64,000 nucleotides of DNA. Source: Macrostomum lignano. Lineage: Eukaryota. Where the stretch lies: assembly GCA_002269645.1 (NCBI GenBank), contig NIVC01000759.1:1-64000 (forward strand), in the 5' to 3' direction. Both the position numbers and the translations under genes were made by a program. Shown in pieces: positions 2 to 13,691 of the stretch; the stretch's first letter is position 1, and every line of letters begins with the position of its first letter. The notes under the pieces were generated by a model, which made no database searches, was not told the DNA's origin, and worked only from the letters and a program-made list of their open reading frames with translations.

Positions 2-396
2 TTAAAATCAGATCAAAATAAAAAAGTTGTACTTAAAATGAAAGATGAATTAAATAGCAAAATCATAACCGAGTTTATAGCAATAAGATCAAAATGCTAT
101 GCATTTAAGGTTTTAGGACAGGAGGGAGAGGTAAAAAAAATAAAAGGGGTATCAAGAGCAGCAGTAAAAAAGATAACATTTGATGATTATAAAAACGTAC
201 TTTTAGATTACCTTAATACAATTGAAAATTATCATGCTCCACAATATCGATTAAATTCAGATAAGCATCAGATGTTTGTCATCGAGACAGATAAAAAACA
301 TTAAGTCCATTTGATGATAAAAGATATTTAGATGATAAAATTAAAACATATCCATATTGGTTTAAAAGAAGAGATAAAAAATATGATAAAAGATAA
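2..396 (+). CDS. Protein-primed family B DNA polymerase, C-terminal part (5-prime truncated by window; 1-nt frameshift near 299)
   Basis: NKKVVLKMKDE...RSKCY...KIKGV...DDYK, then in the shifted frame LSPFDDKRY...TYPY, the typical Polinton pPolB C-terminus. Confidence 0.9.
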
Positions 397-2877: not shown

Positions 2878-4856
2878 ACCAAAAGATGTACTACCACAAA
2901 CTGCGCCACGAATAAAATGTGCAGCATCCGATCCTCCAGTTCGAGCACCAAAACCCATAAGGTTCCACTTTATCAAAGTTCCCCAAGTTCCACTATCATA
3001 TGTGAAAACGTTCTGCCCAATGAGGGTAAAGAATCACCAGCAACATTGTATGTATGAATCTATACCAAACCCTTTGATTTAAAATATTAATTTCAAAACA
3101 GATGCCAATCACCGTTATCAATATTGCATAGGCTACAGTTTGATCCGCGTCAGTATTAACATCCGCGCGGCTTGATCCGTCTGATTTTTTGAACTCCAAA
3201 GTACCAAATTTATCATGCCACTCACTAGCAAAAACTATCAATCCGGCGTCGGTTGATAATCCAGATCCAAATTCCGATGTTGGACGTTGGTGACAGTATG
3301 CATAAAACCAAACCGCATCTGCACCATCTCCTGTAGCATTAGCAACTCGGAAAAAGAAAGACGCAGATATATTTTGAAAATGTGTGAAATTGAATTGTAA
3401 AGCACCACTTACTCCAGAAGTTTCACGAGTAATTCTAGCGCCGTTTTGATAATCGATATAAGAAGCGTCACCAATTAAAGAACCGACTGGATATATATCT
3501 CCGGCGGTTGTTGGATTTTGATATCCAGACCAATTGCAAATTACTGGTTCGAACAAGGCCGCATCAATAGCAGGTATTCCATCCAATTTATTTTTATCGC
3601 TTCCAGACATTCTACCATTTGATGTTGGAGTAGCTAGCTGATCTACGTACGCTCGCGGAACTGCAGAAAGTATTTGAGTTGGCCAATTAAGATCTTGAAT
3701 TTCAACACGGTGTTCAAATAATTGTATTTGACGAACCTCGATAGGTTGTGTACCGGTACCACCAGTTGGGAAGAATACGCTATAATATTTCCAAAAATTA
3801 GTCGTTAAATTAGATAGAGCAAATGATGTTGCTTGAACTGGTGATCCCGACGTAGTTAATGTCGTCCATGAATCGGTAGCAACATTTTTTGCGCGAACCG
3901 ACCACCCCGAGGGTATCTCAATTGTTTCACTGCCTGTAATTCTTAATTCAAATATTCTTCTATTATAACCTAAAAATTCAAATTGAATTTCCATATTGGT
4001 TGTGGTTCCGGTATTTGGTGACCATTGTGTCGCAAGGCTTCCATCTCCAACTCGAAAAGCTGTGTTGCCATTTTCAGATGCTGTAAGAACAACATCAGGA
4101 TTTGAAGTATTTGATGTAAGCGGCGTGGTAAAAATATCGGCGTCGGTTGCATTAGCTCGCTCGTTTACTTGGCCTAGAGTTATCGAGTCTGCGTTATCTG
4201 TTCCAAATAATAAATTTGTTAATTTAAAATTATTCATATTAATATTACCACTACGAGTGGCAACTTGATTATCGACATAGTTCTTATCAACCACTGAATC
4301 ACTAGTTGTAATTGAAACATTTATAATTCGGTTGTTGCTCATATCTAGGTTTCCGGTTGCGGTGGTTTGAACATAACGTGAATCAGAATCAGTTCGAGAA
4401 TAAGAATCAGTTACATCTCTTTTTAAATTTAATCCATTATCAACTTCGGTTTTGGTATAAGAATCGGCTACGTTCCGTTTCAAATTTAATGAATTATCAA
4501 CTTCGGTTTTGTATAAGAATCGTTATTCTCTTTAAATTTAATGAATTATCAACCTCTGTTTTGGTATAAGAATCGGCTGTATTGCGTTTTAAATTTAATG
4601 AATTATCAACTTCGGTTTTGGTATAGGAATCGGCTACGTTCCGTTTCAGATTTAGTGAATCATCTATTTGAGTTTTGGTATAGGAATCTGCAACATTTCT
4701 TTTTAAATTTAATTTATTATCAATTTCAGTTTTTTTATAACCTTCATCCTCATTAATATATCGATTATCTCCAAATGTAACACTTATTCCACCAGATGTG
4801 CCACCACCACCACTACTTGTTGTTCCGTTCCATGAGGGTGTTCCAGAAAATAACAT
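2878..4856 (-). CDS. Fibre/spike-like adhesin: 19-aa shaft repeats, F5/8-type-C (discoidin)-like domain, C-terminal L-type lectin-like domain; split by frameshifts near 4520 and 3000
   Basis: Six YTKTEVDNSLNLKRNVADS-type repeats; NNRIINV...KNYVD and RAYVD stalk motifs; GDGSLATQW...WTTL...WKYY...IQLF discoidin pattern; GADAVWF...GFGARTGGSDAAHFI lectin pattern; 3-prime end approximate. Confidence 0.65.
4401..4742 (-). repeat. 57-bp coding tandem repeat (6 units) in the fibre gene
   Basis: Direct repeats of taagaatcggct...aaatttaatgaattatcaacttcggttttgg. Confidence 0.9.
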
Positions 4857-4866
4857 TTTTTACTGT

Positions 4867-5337
4867 CTATTTTATAGAGTCTAAAATCGTGCCATCGGCA
4901 CGCATGCTTTGCATGATCGCCCTAAAGTCTTCGGGGTTTACACGAGCTTCATTCGAAAGTCGATATAAAAAATACAACGCCGCTTGCCCGCAATAACTTT
5001 TATCAAAGGTTTGAAATTGTTCGTGATGATCTCCACATAAACGATTTTTAGTATGATTAAATTTATCTTTTATTTCCTGTAACGGAGGAAGCGCGTATGA
5101 ATCAAAAAAATAAACAAGTTTAGGTTTGGAATAAACTGCCGACCAATGAACACCATTTTCTTTTGTTGTTTCAATATTAACAATGAAAGATCCATATTGT
5201 GGTAAGTCTTTGATCTCATCTCGCATAACACATCTGAATGGTTTTATTTTTAACTGCCTCGCCCAATTTGTTAATTCGATATTGCTTGTTGTGTCTGTTC
5301 CATATCGTTGTTTAAAATCATCCCACGTCATGGTCAT
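4867..5337 (-). CDS. Adenain-like cysteine protease (virion maturation protease)
   Basis: Catalytic H-D-Q-C pattern: GVHW, FFDSY, Q....YCG. Confidence 0.9.
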   Translation of the reverse strand: MTMTWDDFKQRYGTDTTSNIELTNWARQLKIKPFRCVMRDEIKDLPQYGSFIVNIETTKENGVHWSAVYSKPKLVYFFDSYALPPLQEIKDKFNHTKNRLCGDHHEQFQTFDKSYCGQAALYFLYRLSNEARVNPEDFRAIMQSMRADGTILDSIK

Positions 5338-5534: not shown

Positions 5535-6317
5535 TTAAACCTGTTTTATACGTAAAATTATTGTTATTGACTGCCCACCAAAACTTATTAATCTATCGCT
5601 TTCATCTACAATCCTAATATAAATTGATTGAACATTATATTGATTTAATGGGTAATATATTGGGGTTTGAGGTGATACAATCATTTTCTCTCCAATTGGA
5701 ACAGCAAGAAATGGGATTGAATAAATAATTCCACGTTGAACCAAAACTCCATTATTATCTGTTATATAACCGCCGTTTGATATGTCGGTTGTTATATTAA
5801 TTGTATTGACTCCGCCCTCAATGTTTCCACGTATCACCGGTGCTTGATGTGGTAACTATTCGGGAATTAAATCCAAGTATGGTTCTGAGTGAATTTGCAA
5901 TTGTGAAATCAACCTGATATCCGGATCCTAGTGATAGTGTGAATCTGCCAGACGGTAAATCAACACCTATAACAATTGCTCCTGCTACCCAATCACCATT
6001 AGTTGTTAATTCTCCTTCTATATAAGCATTCAAATCAGTATAGCTATACGCTCCTGGGTTAACGCTAAATGTTGTCCAATTGGCTCCGGAATCTTTAGAA
6101 TATCTAAATTGATTATTTGTTGCATTAATTAATTGAGGCATGTTGAAAACCGAAAATAGAATTAAACCTATTTGATAACTTAGGCTTTGATCAAGTTGTA
6201 ACGGGTCGCGCAATTGAATCGTTGTTCGCTGGTTGTCATTATAAACTGTAATGTTGTACTAAATTTTGAATTAGTTCGATCTACCAATTGTTTTATAGTA
6301 TCTAAATTTGTAGTCAT
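5535..6317 (-). CDS. Minor capsid protein (penton, single jelly-roll); frameshifts near 6215 and 5830
   Basis: PGAYSYTDLN...LRTILGF...GVNTINITTDI...PIYYPLN...IRIVDESDRLISF...ITIILRIK, typical Polinton penton; two ORF-track pieces join with single-base shifts. Confidence 0.85.
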
Positions 6318-6384
6318 TTTTATAGTGGGAAATTAATCGTACCGAAGTACGCGTTCCGAAGGAACGATCGAACGAAGTCGCGTG

Positions 6385-7179
6385 CTATGTCTCTTCTTCC
6401 TCATTATCTTCTTTTATCAAATTTGTTAAAATTCTATGTTTCCTTTCTAACCTCGGATTGATATAAATATGTTTGTATTGGCTATCATCCCAAATTTTTT
6501 TACACATACTTTTAAATGGTTTTGCATCCAATCCGGGATTAAATCTAGCGTGAATATTTTGTAGATCATAGTTATCTAAATCAAACATTACACAACAGCT
6601 AGCATTCTTTTTTATAATCGATTCTAATTCTCTAAAGGATTGAGTAAGATAAAAAGCTCCAATTCCATCTCCTCTACCACTAACAAAAATTTCCTTTTGC
6701 AATTCTTGATCACCGTCATTAATACAATCATCAAAAATAATTAGTGTTTTATCATGTTTTGGAATTTGATCATAGGCTAATCGGGTTGATACTCTAACAG
6801 TTGGGGCGCGATCGGACGAAGTCCGCGACCCTTCGGGGCGATCGGTGATGTTTTCTGGCTGTTGTGCCATTGTTTTACATAAATCCTCAATGTCTGCTAG
6901 ATTAAATCGCGGTTCGTCATCATCCTCATATTGCTCATATGCTCTTAACATTCTAAACAAGACATCTTTTTTTAATTTGTTTTTTAATCCATGTTTAAGA
7001 AATTCATAATATTTTATTCTAGGTTTATTAGTATAAATTATTAAATTATTATAGTCTAACATTCCATCTGTTGTTAATAAATCGTAAACAAAGTGTGTTT
7101 TTCCTTTACCTGATCCTCCGATTACTAAACAAAGAAAAGGATCATTTGGAAATATTTTATTGTGTTTTGCCTTTACCAT
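6385..7179 (-). CDS. A32/FtsK-like genome packaging ATPase
   Basis: Walker A GGSGKGKT, Walker B LIIFDD, SGRG...LTQS motif. Confidence 0.93.
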   Translation of the reverse strand: MVKAKHNKIFPNDPFLCLVIGGSGKGKTHFVYDLLTTDGMLDYNNLIIYTNKPRIKYYEFLKHGLKNKLKKDVLFRMLRAYEQYEDDDEPRFNLADIEDLCKTMAQQPENITDRPEGSRTSSDRAPTVRVSTRLAYDQIPKHDKTLIIFDDCINDGDQELQKEIFVSGRGDGIGAFYLTQSFRELESIIKKNASCCVMFDLDNYDLQNIHARFNPGLDAKPFKSMCKKIWDDSQYKHIYINPRLERKHRILTNLIKEDNEEEET

Positions 7180-7181
7180 TT

Positions 7182-8736
7182 TTAAAGAAATAATTTAAAT
7201 AGGCGCGACGGTCGGAGACCTGCACTCATTTTACAGCGGCGCGACGTGCTTTGCACTGCACTCATTTTACAATGGTGCGTCCGAACAATCGTGCCATCAG
7301 CTTTAGCAATTGACATATATTCCTCTAGAAACAATACGTGGGCGTCAAGTGCCTGATTACCGGTTTTATTAATCTCTAACATATAATTAAGTCCAATATT
7401 GGCTACGTTTTCTTTCTGTGCCGTTAGATCATAAACAACCACTGGATGAATGTTTAGAAACTCTGTGGGTGTGTACTGAGGGACGGCATACGCTTCATTT
7501 TTGGCATAATCTTGATAATATTTTATAAAATCATTAACATTATTATTTGCAATATTTAGATTAAGAGGATCTTTAACCGGATAATATTGATCATCAACCT
7601 GCAGGCGGATATTCTGAACATTAAACTCGTTAATTGCAGCAACTGCGTTGTCTGTTGCGGTGGCTGCTTGTTCTGCTATGGCACCGGATTGAAGCCAATA
7701 TAAATCCCCATTTGCTCTTTTACTCCTTCTATTTGTTATCTTAAACCAAACAAAAATATATCTCACCCGACGTTTTGATGTCAGTATTTGCCACTGGAAT
7801 GAATCCTGATTGTTATTAATGGTTCGCATAAAGTGTCTACGATTCAAATAAAATATTTCCTGATCATGCGTTAATGATTATCGATGTGTTTTAAAAGCGG
7901 AGCTGTTACCTCAATAGTTGGTACGACTAATTGAATTGAATCTATACGAACTGCTATATCGGTTGAAATTGAGGTTCCATAAAGTATCCTAGGCTGATAT
8001 CCACCAGATATTTGCAACTGTATCCCAAATTTTAATCCTTTCCATACCCGATTTGGTGAGAAGAACCCAAATAGCGGAAGATTGAAAAGTCCTGCTCATA
8101 TGCTGTTGCTGTGGTTAAAACCGCGACTGGGAATTTATTCTGACGAGCTATAAAACCTGTATTAATATCTTTTGTATTAGTCATGGTGGTTACAACTGGA
8201 ACTATGTTTGTATTAAGGTAAACAATTAGCGCTGCAGTATCTGCACCGGCTGCGTTTTGTACATTAGGGAAAACTACTGCTTGCCCGTTACCTTTATCCG
8301 GCATCCACCCAACATTATCACCAACTTGTTTTGATAAATAAGTATAATTTAAATGTTTCAAAACTCCATTAATCTCTGCGGGGTTTGATGATGTCTCAAC
8401 CTCAGCACCATTAACAGTTAGTTGAGCTTGGGAAAAACATTTATAAAACCAATCATTTTCAATTATTATTCCGGATCGATCTGCGATATCTCCGCCTGCA
8501 AGAGCAGTTCCATCATTTCTAGTATACAACCATCTAACGCGGAAAAACGCATTTTTCATATCCAATATAGTGTTGGTTGCGCCGATGTCAAAAGTTACCG
8601 TTCCAGTAGTAAAGTTATTTGAATTATCACTTGTTGGTAGGGTATAATTTAAATCGTTTGCTCTGACCTCATTAATATACTGTCGGTGCTTTTTGAAATG
8701 AAATTTATCACTCCACATAGTTTTTGTTTCAGCCAT
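7182..8736 (-). CDS. Major capsid protein (double jelly-roll); two frameshifts near 8075 and 7870
   Basis: FSQAQLTVNGAEVE...; the intervening frame reads PLFGFFSPNRVWKG...IQLVVPTI; C-terminal RYIFVWF...IRLQVDDQYYP...PVVVYDLTAQ. Confidence 0.88.
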
Positions 8737-8770: not shown

Positions 8771-9441
8771 ATGAGTCAATTTATGGACGTTGATGGAGAG
8801 TTAGCGATTTATAAAGAGAAGCAAAGATATTCTGATTTTGTTAGAAATTTACAAAAAAGAAAGTTAGGAATACAATTAGCGGGTGAAAGATTTGCTGCTC
8901 CTTTTGTTAATCCTATTACTGGGAAAATTAGTGAACTAGAAAAAACAGATAAAGATCTTCTGGAAAAAATTGCTAAAAATACTGAGCCAAAAGAGGATGA
9001 AATTTTGGATGAGCCGCCTGCTTATGATGTTGATCAAGCTCAATTGAGAGTTGCAGAGATTAGGGCTGCAGAAAGGGGTGGAGTTGATGAATATCCGAGA
9101 GCTGCACCAACTAGTATTGCTGTGACAGATTTAGGTAATAATAATTATCGAATTGGTGGAGTTGATAAAAATCGAAATGAACTATATAGAGAATTGGGCG
9201 GAGCATATAATATTGTTATGAACCCTAGGGTAAAATTTAACCCTGAATTATATACTAGGGATGAATTAGTAAGTGCAAAAATTTTTTATGATGAGTTGGG
9301 AGTAAGAGCTGCTAAAAATACCAGCTTGTATAAAAGATTGTTAATTCTATAAATAACAAACCAGCTGTTGGAGAAGGATTTAAAACTCCTAGAAAACTTG
9401 TTTTAGCTGCCGCGAAAGCTGCTGGACATACTGGTGTTTAA
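8771..9441 (+). CDS. Conserved Polinton hypothetical (probable core) protein; frameshift near 9345
   Basis: N-terminal ERFAAPFVNPIT motif; continuation in another frame VGEGF...LVLAAAKAAGHTGV matches the Polinton A.KAG.TG motif (from memory). Confidence 0.6.
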
Positions 9442-9468
9442 TTAATTGTTAAATTTATTTTTTATAAA

Positions 9469-10080
9469 ATGGAAACTAATAAGATTTGTACTAAGTGTAA
9501 ACAAGAAAAACCGATGACGAAAGAATTTTATTTTTGGAGAAATGATTCAAAAAAATTTAGAAATGATTGTCGATCTTGTCATAATACCTCATCTGCTATT
9601 TGGATAAAAAACAATAAAGATAAATGGAATGAATATAGAAAAAATAAGTATCACACTGATGATAATTACAAACATATTGTTTTAATTAGAAATAGAATAA
9701 ATTGGGCGTTGAAAAATTTTAATGACAAGGACTATATCTCATATCTTGGTTGCACAAAAGAATTCTTTTTTGATTGGTTAAATTTCACAAGAAATTATTA
9801 TGTATCAAAAGATTATACTGGAAAGTTAGATATTGATCATTTCATTCCCGCTTCTTCGTTTAGTTACAAAGATGAAGATCAGATGAAAAAGTCTGAACAT
9901 TGGACAAATAAAAGATACTTAACTAGCGTAGATAATAACTATAAAAAAGTTAAACAACCAACCATTGAAGAGTTTGCAAAACAATTGGTGCTTTCATGTA
10001 TTTTTAAGGCTATTAAAAATGAGCAACCGAACGAAGTTCGCGTTCCTTCGGAACGATCGGGCGGAGCCCGCGTGCCTTAG
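9469..10080 (+). CDS. HNH-family endonuclease with N-terminal CxxC zinc finger (giant-virus-like, putative homing endonuclease)
   Basis: CTKC...CRSC, YLGC...DW, DIDHFIP...HWTN...DN..KK. Confidence 0.8.
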   Translation: METNKICTKCKQEKPMTKEFYFWRNDSKKFRNDCRSCHNTSSAIWIKNNKDKWNEYRKNKYHTDDNYKHIVLIRNRINWALKNFNDKDYISYLGCTKEFFFDWLNFTRNYYVSKDYTGKLDIDHFIPASSFSYKDEDQMKKSEHWTNKRYLTSVDNNYKKVKQPTIEEFAKQLVLSCIFKAIKNEQPNEVRVPSERSGGARVP

Positions 10081-11659
10081 GCACGATCAAATAGTGTTTG
10101 AAGGAGGATTGTTAGATGTTCAAAAAGGATTAACAAGCTTACCACCAATCTTTACTACTGGAAGGTATACTGGGGAACTACATTTACCATCAATGAACTT
10201 CACAGGTTAACCCGTGGCCTGAGTGAGGAAGGCAATGTCCTTGCTAGTCACTATTTGTGGCGACATCTCCAAATTGCGTGAGACCCGTCATACTGCTTCA
10301 AGTACCACTTCAATTGAGAAATCTTTTGAAGGAACAGAGGTAACTCCTCTTCCCAAAGGTGGCAAGCTTGAGGACACGGTGGCAGTGCGCAGCCAAGCTC
10401 CTAAGTATTTTAAATATAAGGAGAAGGTTCAGAGAGCAGACGGAGATGGGCGGTAATTATCGCCGCTTAAGGTGTGCTCCAGCCTCTTTCGAAAGATTGA
10501 GGGTAAACTACCCGGCACTCGCTTAGATTTGAGATTAAATCCTGATGACACCCCAAAAGCCGATTCAATTCCCATAAATGGAATTGATTGGTTAGCATAC
10601 TATCATGACTTAGCATACAGAGATGCTGATAAGAACACACCCGAGGAAGCATTAAGATTAAAACATGAAGCCGATCAAAAAATGATTCAAGGATTAGATA
10701 ACTTGCAGGGATTATCGGTAGGTCAAAAATTAACTAGGTGGATGGTTAAAAAGATTCTACAATCTAAAGTTAAATTTGGTTTGGGAATTAATTATAATCA
10801 ACATGGAAATAATTGTGTTGAGTGTTTGTTGTTAAGTGGCGGTGGGTTAAGTTCTGATGAGGCAAAGATTCTTCATAAAGAATATCGAAAACCTAAATTT
10901 TATAGAAAAATCATGAACTTCAAAAAGAACGAAATTTGGTATGCTGATTTAATGTCTATGCCGATCGATAAAGGATATAAATATATTTTAACCATATTAG
11001 ATGGTTTTACTCGATACGCGTGGGCTGTTCCTTTGAAATCCAAAAAAGGAGAGGATGTTGCTGCTGCTTTTAGAAGTCTTGGAGAAAAAAGCGAAAGATT
11101 GTGTGTTGACGAAGGAAAAGAATTTTACAATCCTCATATGTATAAATTGTATCATTTTGAAAAAGGAAAAGAAAGGATGAAGGGCGCGAATGGGGAGTAT
11201 ATTAATAAAATTTATTCTATTTATGGAGAGAGTAAAAACGCATTAATAGAAAGATTTAATCGAACTTTAGGTAAGAAATTGTGGTTTCAGTTTAGTCTTA
11301 ATGGAAACCAAAAATGGGTAAAAATATTACCAGACGTTGTAAAAGATTATAACAATTCATATCATTCGGCCATAAAGATGGCTCCTCAACAAGCTTATAA
11401 CAAACCTGAAAATGTTAAGGTTACTTTTGGAAAATTTGAAAAAAATAAAAAGAAATCTTTTAAGGTTGGTGATTCTGTTTATATCTATAAATGGAAAGAT
11501 AAGTTTGAAAAAGGAAGAAAAGGATATTGGAAGATAAGTGAGAAATTTACTATCAGTAAAGTTTTAAATACCAATCCTACAACCTATATAATTGCTGATA
11601 AGGACGGTGAAGAAATATTGGGTTCGTTTTATGAGAACCAACTAATATCAGCGAACTAA
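10019..11659 (+). CDS. PLA2-integrase fusion, join(10019..10207,10511..11659), about 445 aa after intron removal
   Basis: Splicing restores ELHLPSMNFTG-PGTRLDLRL...PINGID...YYHDLAY (parvovirus-type PLA2: GPG loop and HD dyad), in frame with an rve integrase having ADL / VDEG / IERFN (DDE). Confidence 0.85.
10208..10510 (+). ncRNA. Group I intron, IC1-like, 303 nt
   Basis: P1 CAGGU/GCCUG with U.G at the 5-prime splice site; P3 CAUCUCC(10264-70)/GGAGAUG(10442-48); AAAUUGCG and GCGCAGCCAAGCUCCUAA...GGAGAAGGUUCAGA core; P5b and P9 GAAA loops; P7 G-A-GAGCA(10432-38)/UGCUCC(10475-80); P8 hairpin; J8/7 UAAGGUG. Confidence 0.9.
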
Positions 11660-11669
11660 GTTCGAACAA

Positions 11670-11894
11670 TTACTTGAGACAACATGGTAGTAAATTTTTT
11701 ATAACAAACAAAAACAATATTATTACAATAATTGTTACTAATATTATTATTGACATTTGTTCAACTGTTATCAAACTTAAATTTTCATTAAGTTCATTAA
11801 TTGGAACATTTCCGATGTAGGAATAGTTTACCTTCATTTTTTTATATATATTTTTCACAATAAATGTCGTTTCTGTTATAGAATAATAGTTCAT
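11670..11894 (-). CDS. Small membrane protein (single TM helix)
   Basis: 74 aa, IIILVTIIVIIILFLFVI; AAAAA-ATG start. Confidence 0.5.
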   Translation of the reverse strand: MNYYSITETTFIVKNIYKKMKVNYSYIGNVPINELNENLSLITVEQMSIIILVTIIVIILFLFVIKNLLPCCLK

Positions 11895-12225: not shown

Positions 12226-12282
12226 TTTTAGTAACAGAAAAAGACCCTTCGCGCCTGCGGCGCGGGCAAGGGGTTATAGAGT

Positions 12283-12550
12283 AGTAGTATAGAAAAAGAC
12301 GCTTCTAGATCAGACCTTATTTTAATGGCCGTTTGTAAGGTCTTAAGAGGGGGGACGCGAGGGGGGTGTTGGGGAGTGTTTGGAAGTGTTTGGAAGTGAT
12401 TTTTATTGTTAGGGGTGATTATGGGTGATTAGATGTATTAATGGTGTTTAGATGTGTTTTTTTATTTACCCCCCGTGTCCCCCCTCTAGACCCTTAAAAC
12501 GGTCATTAAAAAAGTGCTCTGGGTCTAGAAGCGTCTTTTTCTATACTACT
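12283..12550. repeat. Self-complementary Polinton terminus: about 85-bp imperfect inverted repeat with a perfect outer 27 bp
   Basis: 12283-12309 agtagtatagaaaaagacgcttctaga is the exact reverse complement of 12524-12550. Confidence 0.9.
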
Positions 12551-13691
12551 AACACTTATTTCTTCGTCAGGTCTGTAGATGTTCACGCAGGTGTCACGCA
12601 AATTGTTCAAAAATGGACGAATCTTGTACAACGGATCACCAGGTGTGGGATCCTCAAGGCAATCATAAAAGCGAAGAAAGCCGAGCAATTGCTTGAAGCG
12701 GTCTCTAGAGAGCGCCTCAGGTGCTTGAAAGTATGGTGTCGAGTGGTAGCTGCCAGTACTCCAGTAGTCATTCATCTCAGTCTTCTTGTTGCTTCCCATG
12801 TACAGGTACATGCCAATCAACTTCTTGACTTCGTTTGCGCTACATTCGTTCCACTGTAACAAACTCACAGGCAGGTCATCAGCATCCAATGAATGAATTG
12901 CTGCCCAAGCTCTACGGTTAGTCCACATAGCTAGATCTTCAAACAACGAATCAGACAGGAATAAACCTAAGAAGAAGGAAGTTGAGTTCTCAACATCGGC
13001 AGGCACTATTATTCCAGGATTCAGGCCAGGTGTTCCGAAAAACTCGATATCTCTCGTCGATGCGTCGTTCCCAACGATAGCAGGCCGCCACGACAACTCA
13101 TCAGCAACCTGTACGTCCTCATCAACACTGTCCAGAACATCTGACTCACCAGAAGAATCATCTGATAAGAGGTAGTCCTCGTCGTCCGATGTCATGAGTT
13201 CAGACATTTCGTCCACTTGGGCCATTTCAAAGCTCTTTGAGAACTGATTTTATAGTATTCGGCTCAAACCATACTGAGACAGATAAAGTATAGGAAACGA
13301 AAACTTAAGGAGTCAAAGAACCACTGTAGTATAAAGCACGACTGAATAAGCTGTCAAAAAGCTAGACGAGTAAGGAGATGGATCAGCTTCTCTGTTTGAA
13401 CTGACTGGGGCTAGGAAAAGAACGTTTCTTATACTGTTCGTGTTGCCCATTCCTCTTGTACAGGGACCAGTGTGCTTTCAGTCTAGAAACAGGCTACTTA
13501 AATGTACATTTTTGCTTATTTTTCTACCCCAGCCGACTGAATGTCTATTGATAAGCATTGCTTACCATGCCGACCGGAACGGAGAGAAAAAATATCTATG
13601 GCTCAGTCAGAAGCCAAATAGTCTATGGTAAGCACTGCTTACCATCCGACTGGAACGGAGATGAAAAATTTTGGGCCCAGTCTTGAAGAGG
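12551..13691 (-). mobile_element. piggyBac transposon 5-prime half, interrupted by the Polinton
   Basis: TTAA (13692-95) followed by CCTCTTCAAGACTGGGCC terminus; 33-bp subterminal direct repeats (13553, 13630); transposase ORF from 13225 with acidic N-terminus, MSRDRF-like LSRDRF, DPLYKIRP, ending at PDEEISV just before the catalytic D. Confidence 0.88.

Follow-up and report, generated by a model that had tools for sequence, protein, structure and literature searches.

The first 64,000 nucleotides of contig NIVC01000759.1 from the flatworm Macrostomum lignano (GenBank assembly GCA_002269645.1; this whole stretch, read on the forward strand, is hereafter the window) contain part of a Polinton-type element in which a gene for a phospholipase A2-like (PLA2) domain fused to an integrase is interrupted by a group I intron of 303 nt. 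Sister copies of the interrupted gene encode, within or beside the intron, a restriction-type nuclease whose predicted target, GGNCC, is absent from the elements. We propose, with a probability of about 0.65, that this mobile intron removes the last unavoidable target of a restriction-derived GGNCC nuclease and that immune copies convert or suppress the empty ones, splicing and cleavage both being predicted from sequence. The family of group I introns on a Polinton-type element in animal nuclear DNA is real, and its link to the nuclease is strong but indirect. A preliminary description of this DNA had recognised the intron and missed the nuclease and the purge of its sites, which change the likely meaning of the intron.

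Boundaries, fold and constraint of the intron

Copies of the intron are abundant in the searched assembly (764 Mb, in which the window is the start of one contig). A search at the DNA level scored 40 of 199 candidates, all 40 spanning the complete intron at 92-100%, and a pattern for the 3' end found at least 132 intron ends of two types, with none for a control pattern; these counts may include haplotype duplicates. Among 70 loci, the first 30 chosen by likeness to the window and the others by pattern or by hand for diversity, both splice sites were recovered in 68. Type A, to which the window copy belongs (46 loci), measures 299-339 nt and has no open reading frame (ORF), while type B (22 loci), mostly of 836-895 nt, has a canonical P7 helix, a terminal G and an ORF inserted after P2, with a long open frame in 13 of the 22. 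The Rfam matches in type-B copies were at one point taken for a second intron, an interpretation that was rejected: a single intron of 836-895 nt is present, its 5' part preceding the ORF and its core giving the Rfam match.

The insert of the window copy (10208-10510, forward strand) opens with an in-frame TAA and its exact ends are not GT-AG, as the preliminary description had stated. Its G+C content is 48%, compared with 38% and 35% in the flanks. The group I model RF00028 aligns with 10198-10501 along its entire length of 253 positions (E = 3.4e-11, 48.7 bits). This full-length match argues for the proposed intron class, but its score falls under the gathering score of 50 bits, so that a default Rfam scan does not report the window copy. 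All nine sister copies scanned exceed that threshold (61-91 bits overall): the near-identical copy L002 reaches 62.1 bits, four further type-A copies 61-71 bits and the type-B copies 73-91 bits.

The intron splits the Gly and Pro codons of the PLA2 motif. Uninterrupted homologues (L086, L087 and L089 of the same genome, L086 being also of the same family, and the protein P0001) have a contiguous Gly-Pro-Gly-Thr, which is invariant in the eight aligned proteins (8/8), and it is because of these natural uninterrupted sequences that the splice junction and the last intron base, A10510, can be fixed. A 3' splice site at the Gs of 10501-10503 was rejected, as it would insert three residues found in none of the eight aligned homologues and the P9.0 pairing indicates 10510. 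The intron-less alleles sought as a check do exist, in diverged form with exons that differ by 12-21%: at least 22 uninterrupted matches were found among 150 scored of 536 candidates, of which L086, L087 and L089 were read. A junction pattern had returned none at 0-1 mismatches and only chance-level matches beyond, and the resulting idea that there is no empty allele was abandoned after the protein search. With the full-length RF00028 match and the junction fixed by intron-less homologues, 10208-10510 is a group I intron, in agreement with the preliminary description. The folding energy of the whole insert is unremarkable (z = -1.59) and gives no evidence by itself; the case is carried by the covariance model and by covariation. 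The intron comprises the following features:

10208..10510, forward strand: group I intron, ORF-less type A, with P5abc extension and last base A (10510); RF00028 and intron-less alleles
10203..10221, forward strand: P1, exon 10203-10207 with guide 10217-10221, U.G at the 5' splice site (10207.10217); same helix in L054, L150 and L230
10222..10261, forward strand: P2 (10222-10245) and P2.1 (10247-10261), the region that houses the nuclease ORF in type-B copies
10264..10448, forward strand: P3 10264-70/10442-48, P4 10275-80/10386-91, P5 10285-89/10378-82, P5abc 10296-10373, P6/P6a 10392-10428
10432..10480, forward strand: P7 10432, 10434-38/10475-80 with the G-C guanosine-binding pair 10434-10479; P8 10450-10466; G at 10474 (in type B an A, the A306 equivalent)
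10481..10510, forward strand: P9.0 10481-82/10508-09, P9 hairpin with GAAA loop 10483-10502, terminal A

The helices (P1 with its U.G, P3, P4, P5, P5a/b/c, P6, P6a, P7, P8, P9.0 and P9) all pair, including those named in the preliminary description, with a perfect P3 of 7 bp and the GAAA loop of P5b at 10318-10321. P10 also forms four of its five pairs, but it is weak and varies among copies. Elements of the IC1 type (P2/P2.1 and P5abc with its GAAA loop) are present by pairing, the A-rich bulge being altered in the window copy, and this architecture makes subgroup IC1 a candidate assignment. The double change noted in P7 is real, and compensated when set against type-B copies, and the G-C guanosine-binding pair is retained in 25 of 26 aligned sequences. 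The flipped pair at the 266-309 equivalent is accompanied by a G where the 306 equivalent lies; in the Tetrahymena structure, A306 completes the base triple with the 266-309 pair (PMC10020454).

Selection on the fold, also suggested previously, is borne out by comparison of the copies. Across 26 aligned cores, 96.6% of the cells in helices are paired, against 37-50% in slid controls, and 10 of 67 pairs show two-sided changes, among them three pairs of P7 and a single pair in each of P3, P4, P5a and P5b; most of these changes trace to the single split between the A and B lineages and do not count as independent events. Among 32 distinct type-A introns, shared variants fall on 10 of 134 paired and 36 of 164 unpaired sites (p = 6e-4), whereas singletons are spread over 20 paired and 27 unpaired sites (p = 0.75). 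Constraint extends to the exon. The 57 codons of exon 2 that precede its first Met have no in-frame ATG upstream, and their shared variants give a nonsynonymous to synonymous ratio per site of 0.13 (18 distinct colinear sequences from 38 A-ending loci), which offers indirect support for a spliced product. From these sequence comparisons, paired positions and PLA2 codons both appear to be under purifying selection.

An in-frame GT-AG pair raises the alternative that the host spliceosome removes 321 nt, from GT 10206 to AG 10526, keeping the integrase frame and deleting the PLA2 motif. As this would account neither for the conserved ribozyme fold nor for the invariant Pro-Gly-Thr codons after the intron, we regard it as highly improbable. 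Contigs from four sequencing runs (three guessed to be RNA, one of unlabelled type) provided ten joints over 9300-11800, none of which spans the intron; as rare forms drop out of contigs, this result speaks neither for nor against splicing, and a joined contig would itself be ambiguous because intron-less DNA alleles exist. None of the listed runs containing the stretch is recorded as RNA, 14 being guessed to be of that type. One 600-nt contig of run X10 goes through the intron left in place.

A point missed by the preliminary description is that the last intron base, directly after the two-pair P9.0, is an A and not a G. In a hand count of 100 of the 132 intron ends, type A ends in A in 61 cases and in G in 19 (n = 80), and type B in G in all 20. 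The window copy carries further changes. It differs from its nearest sister, L002, by six substitutions over 3.5 kb, all of them intronic, and five are A-to-G changes (10282, 10361, 10362, 10372 and 10385) within 104 nt. They leave a G at the equivalents of A114 and A207 and at two positions of the A-rich bulge, which read A in 29 of 30 loci; in the Tetrahymena structure, A114 and A207 recognise the U.G pair of the splice site (PMC10020454). These private changes at conserved tertiary adenines may impair the window copy, with a possible loss of splicing. As side observations, the A-to-G changes lie mostly at conserved unpaired adenines, for which assembly error, private mutation or an editing-like process are candidate causes, and at 10361-2 the letter of the window is seen in no contig from the four runs.

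All A-ending type-A introns, including that of the window, might be dead for splicing and persist as DNA shields or passengers; G-ending or intron-less copies would then provide PLA2 in trans, and the integrase would start from an internal Met. The terminal A and the changes at the A114/A207-equivalent and bulge positions fit this view, and so does a stop before exon-2 codon 370 in 17 of 38 A-ending loci. The Met at 10682 fits it too: it opens a frame of 325 amino acids containing the entire integrase core, and splicing need not, for this reason, gate the integrase as had been claimed. The selection on paired sites and on pre-Met codons among A-ending copies speaks to the contrary, as does ND5-717 of mushroom corals, reported to yield ligated exons in vivo without a terminal G (PMC6545197). 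Because of this published exception, the terminal A lowers the group I claim for the window copy and not for the lineage. We consider the death of all A-ending introns doubtful; applied to the window copy alone it is likely, and for the family it is compatible with the loss of a nuclease target proposed here as well as with the long-site alternative discussed below.

A restriction-type nuclease and the GGNCC sites

The ORF of type-B introns (L054) matches the Pfam family RE_Eco47II (PF09553) with 30.1 bits over a cut-off of 25.9 (E = 4.6e-7). It encodes a compact restriction-type domain of about 160 amino acids of the PD-(D/E)xK kind, whose predicted structure (predicted local distance difference test, pLDDT, 91.6) has EcoO109I as nearest fold in both fold searches (Foldseek E = 1.7e-4; second search Z = 9.5, root-mean-square deviation 3.7, 160 aligned), with AvaII among the next. 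A sequence search of the PDB gave AvaII as single match, a weak one (E = 0.42), with a common segment after the (D/E)xK motif; NCBIfam and PHROGs provided no name. A free-standing gene, 67% identical, lies directly upstream of the PLA2 gene in L230 (23.8 bits, under the PF09553 cut-off), as it does in 6 of 46 type-A loci; the window copy has an HNH/endonuclease-VII-like gene (9469-10080) at this place instead. AvaII recognises GGWCC and EcoO109I RGGNCCY (PMC7337904), and an Eco47II homolog has been assigned GGNCC "without certainty" (PMC10305163). By sequence and modelled fold, the sister-copy nuclease thus appears to belong to the Eco47II/EcoO109I/AvaII group, a GGNCC-core family, and to be a predicted cutter.

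The nuclease has 114 matches on 78 contigs of the genome. It shares a contig with 38 of 116 interrupted PLA2 places and with none of 22 uninterrupted ones. Viral relatives are 26-41% identical, many in labelled giant-virus genomes, and at each of the 60 viral loci a C5 methylase lies no more than 1.5 kb away; no such methylase was found in the element loci examined or in the window, the 12 matches in the genome all being on other contigs. Among 80 metagenome loci retrieved with the nuclease, 17 were scanned for the intron and one, L150, has it: its PLA2-integrase gene is interrupted at the same site by an intron (80.6 bits, terminal G) with the nuclease inside, and on sequence it is an independent repeat of the intron-nuclease-site arrangement. 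Two side observations concern public proteins. The C-terminal tails of P0009, P0010 and P0016 are read-through of a group I core, so that nuclease-in-intron arrangements occur in other samples too, and P0029 is a methylase-nuclease fusion of the same family. In G000:C954, several partial copies of the type-B intron and nuclease lie within 13 kb.

The intron position acquires a particular significance in this context. Gly-Pro is encoded by GGN CCN in every codon choice and hence always contains GGNCC, and the empty sites of the three intron-less copies read are GGTCC, GGCCC and GGCCC (3/3). The intron sits exactly at the predicted cut site of the sister-copy nuclease, which suggests that it shields the element from its own weapon. 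The absence of GGNCC elsewhere was predicted from the name of the nuclease family before any count was made. The 12.3 kb of the element that lie within the window, its left part being outside, contain 0 GGNCC sites against 10.1 expected (rank 2 of 256 gapped words), whereas the remaining, host part of the window has 146 against 160. The avoidance reaches the protein level, with 0 Gly-Pro dipeptides in 11 element ORFs against 4.7 expected; synonymous shuffles retain on average 3.9 GGNCC sites, and zero in 1.6% of cases. In the 70 related loci, the 179,104 bases that align with the element contain 0 sites, whereas the other 66,072 bases contain 33. The control elements L232 and L233, which bear PLA2 on viral contigs and lack the nuclease, are undepleted (11 against 9.3 and 16 against 17.0 expected). 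In giant-virus loci GGNCC stands at 0.65 of expectation, not below CTNAG or GTNAC, which is uninformative on specificity.

These data would fit the following course of events. The nuclease would have been taken from a giant-virus restriction-modification pair and would cut GGNCC. The elements would have evaded it by losing every GGNCC, even Gly-Pro dipeptides, save the indispensable one of PLA2. The intron would disrupt this remaining site in DNA, and two guanosine-dependent transesterifications would restore the frame in RNA. Intron-bearing copies would then be immune, and intron-less ones would suffer cleavage, followed by conversion (homing) or by displacement through competition. The window copy would be an ORF-less, A-ending immune passenger, itself probably impaired. 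A more demanding version, to which we would give slightly less than even odds, describes a restriction system with a ribozyme in place of modification: a methylase-free GGNCC cutter, a purge from genome to protein level, and a predicted self-splicing intron, working in animal cells even with a terminal A, that hides the PLA2 site, for which at least three introns would have competed.

Several observations weigh against the loss of a nuclease target as the role of the intron. The specificity of the enzyme is deduced from remote homology (13-15% identity to solved enzymes) and from the site purge. CCNGG is likewise low (4 against 15) and TTNCG ranks above GGNCC. Host DNA holds GGNCC at the expected rate, so that nuclear toxicity would be expected of a free 5-bp cutter; we can only guess that the host escapes because expression is restricted to a productive cycle or compartment. 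The 3-kb flank of the intron-less copy L231 also has 0 GGNCC against 3.2 expected, and because this copy too lacks other sites the purge is clade-wide and may predate the intron. The A-ending type-A copies (the 61 of 80 counted above) keep the G-C binding pair unchanged, and recombination with G-ending or intron-less copies could import the codon-selection signal into them. Finally, the copies are related and may include haplotype duplicates, so that counts and p values overstate independence.

Some of these points would be explained if an ordinary mobile intron with a long-site homing endonuclease (like I-Ssp6803I) had landed at a conserved motif and the purge were driven externally, for instance by restriction from a helper giant virus. 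PD-(D/E)xK homing endonucleases with 17-bp sites have been described (PMC3424549), a long site would spare the host, the same nuclease family accompanies a methylase in all 60 viral loci, and the flank of an intron-less copy is purged as well. However, the compact domain is of restriction type, its nearest folds read 5-7-bp GGNCC-core sites, and the nuclease occurs only with interrupted alleles (0/22 versus 38/116). We judge this long-site explanation improbable in comparison with the GGNCC cutter proposed here.

The element, its animal host and a third intron

The interrupted gene and its neighbours in the window are as follows:

10019..10207, forward strand: exon 1 of the PLA2-integrase gene, ending in a Gly codon; its 65-bp hairpin cassette 10023-10087 is missing from several copies
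10511..11659, forward strand: exon 2, which completes the PLA2-like domain and continues into the fused integrase of retroviral type, with an internal Met at 10682 (Pfam Phospholip_A2_4 E = 8e-4; rve E = 1e-7; 74% identity to the uninterrupted P0001)
9469..10080, forward strand: free-standing HNH/endonuclease-VII-like ORF (phrog_1035, E = 3.6e-8)
2..304, strand not given: 3' end of a long polymerase-like ORF (tblastn against control elements L232/L233)
5818..6141, strand not given: minor-capsid-like ORF (tblastn against control elements L232/L233)
6385..7179, strand not given: A32-type ATPase (Pox_A32, E = 1e-6, over the cut-off)
12282..12551, strand not given: right end of the element, 270 bp delimited by a perfect inverted repeat of 28 nt, each arm of which ends in the terminal AGTAGT-type motif

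The Phospholip_A2_4 and rve matches (the latter at 32.4 bits for a cut-off of 32.6, E = 1e-7), with the Pox_A32 ATPase nearby, agree with the previous assignment to a Polinton-type PLA2-integrase gene. Window ORFs match the control elements L232/L233 with E values of 6e-17, 1e-17 and 6e-18 (tblastn). Only the last 100 codons of the polymerase-like ORF lie in the window; they are 52% identical to the end of a 1294-amino-acid ORF of L233 that itself has no polymerase family match. We presume the labels polymerase (2-304) and minor capsid (5818-6141) from motifs and gene order, no family match being available for either. Profile searches gave no family match for the capsid and cysteine protease candidates (7182-8736 and 4867-5337).

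Further features of the element were seen in passing. The capsid-like gene 7182-8736 is broken into two frames in the window copy, and a 57-bp tandem repeat (4400-4740 region) lies within ORF 4497-4856. Of the genes compared between copies, the HNH/endonuclease-VII-like ORF varies most (27.6% informative sites against 9-13%). Short GC-rich hairpin cassettes with 3-nt loops (621-647, 6343-6377, 6811-6837 and 10023-10087), in frame within the ATPase ORF and exon 1, are also optional inserts in the intron loops P5, P5c and P6a and resemble a small mobile hairpin element.

The last base of the element is 12551, and this junction falls inside a piggyBac-like transposase ORF (12506-13225). The product of a TRAF-type ORF in the flank shares 93-96% identity with proteins of Macrostomum lignano, and contigs C67, C393, C506 and C952, each bearing the interrupted gene, also carry Wnt exons, in one case 24 kb away. 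The host-type junction, the flank protein and the Wnt exons together corroborate the earlier proposal of integration in an animal nuclear genome. It could still be argued that replication and splicing of the elements take place in a protist, a food alga or another non-animal host, from which they only fall into the worm genome, or that the contig is contamination, considering that group I introns are reported in polinton-like viruses of protists (PMC12220804) and that L150 comes from a metagenome. Against this stand the same junction, flank protein and four Wnt-bearing contigs, 15 type-C copies identical over 181 bases, and the finding of the stretch in runs of seven studies that share a single organism label (one study perhaps being its source), and we hold such an origin to be quite improbable.

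Type C is a third intron type, located after the same Gly codon in L230/L088 (G000:C1307), with 25 matches that include the 15 identical ones. Its P3/P4/P6/P7 words differ from those of types A and B, with which it shares P5abc and P8, so that it is apparently chimeric; we assume the differing words to be IE-like. Its 3' junction seems not to restore Pro-Gly-Thr. Among viral contigs, one intron pattern found nothing and another found 3 matches, all three without an Rfam match, and exon 2 alone retrieved no relative; a PLA2 alignment retrieved five loci there, among them the controls L232 and L233.

Relation to known systems and significance

Like IC1 introns of the Tetrahymena type, the present one has P1 with U.G, a P3-P9 core, P5abc with a GAAA loop, the G-C binding pair and P9.0 before the last base; it differs by its terminal A, its flipped P7 pairs and its location, since the element that carries it lies in an animal nuclear genome and the interrupted gene codes for a protein. 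A review describes nuclear group I introns as occurring exclusively in rRNA genes of eukaryotic microorganisms (PMC3679873). Introns matching RF00028, of 300-380 nt, have been reported in polinton-like viruses, also small integrating DNA viruses, of a few protist groups (PMC12220804), so that of the novelty initially claimed the animal setting stands, but not the presence of such introns in this kind of virus. Those introns have rhizarian, chlorophyte and cryptophyte hosts, the gene that holds them is short and located upstream of that for the capsid, and they have been assigned no nuclease; here the host is an animal, the site is a PLA2 motif and the nuclease is of a restriction family. Our literature search, which covered few subscription papers, found among the records listed neither a group I intron in an animal Polinton nor this pairing of nuclease and intron. 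Alpha adintoviruses/Polintons with PLA2X share the PLA2-like gene, integrase, packaging ATPase and terminal repeat (PMC8502044); here PLA2 is fused to the integrase, and a term search of that paper returned no mention of an intron.

Introns and homing endonucleases have been proposed or shown to serve viral competition (PMC5871332; PMC11620839), and collaborative homing has been described (PMC11296320). Bodo saltans virus (PMC5871332), gp210 of phage PhiPA3 (PMC11620839) and collaborative homing share with our elements an intron plus a nuclease, internal or free-standing, whose target is the uninterrupted allele in a related virus. The Bodo saltans virus and PhiPA3 enzymes are reported as HNH or GIY-YIG with specific targets; here the enzyme is of a type II restriction family, its predicted site has 5 bp, and this site has been lost throughout the element. 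With Eco47II (PF09553), EcoO109I, AvaII and giant-virus relatives the nuclease shares the family match, the fold and the segment after (D/E)xK; here, in contrast, no methylase partner was found in the loci examined, the enzyme is encoded in or beside an intron, and protection would apparently come from site loss and the intron. ND5-717 of hexacoral mitochondria is, like the window copy, an animal group I intron without terminal G (PMC6545197), but it is described as mitochondrial, obligatory and vertically inherited, whereas ours is nuclear-integrated, optional and polymorphic for A and G.

Animal group I introns are described as mitochondrial. As a multi-copy polymorphic set in the chromosomes of a laboratory flatworm, these introns make ribozyme splicing from protein-coding transcripts in animal cells directly testable, and their natural A- and G-ending alleles on one core are a ready comparison for the role of the terminal G. 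If our proposal is true, the combination of a short-site nuclease, a site purge and an intron at an obligatory Gly-Pro would represent a new route from restriction enzymes to homing or competition enzymes, and would supply a reason for the intron to benefit its carrier.

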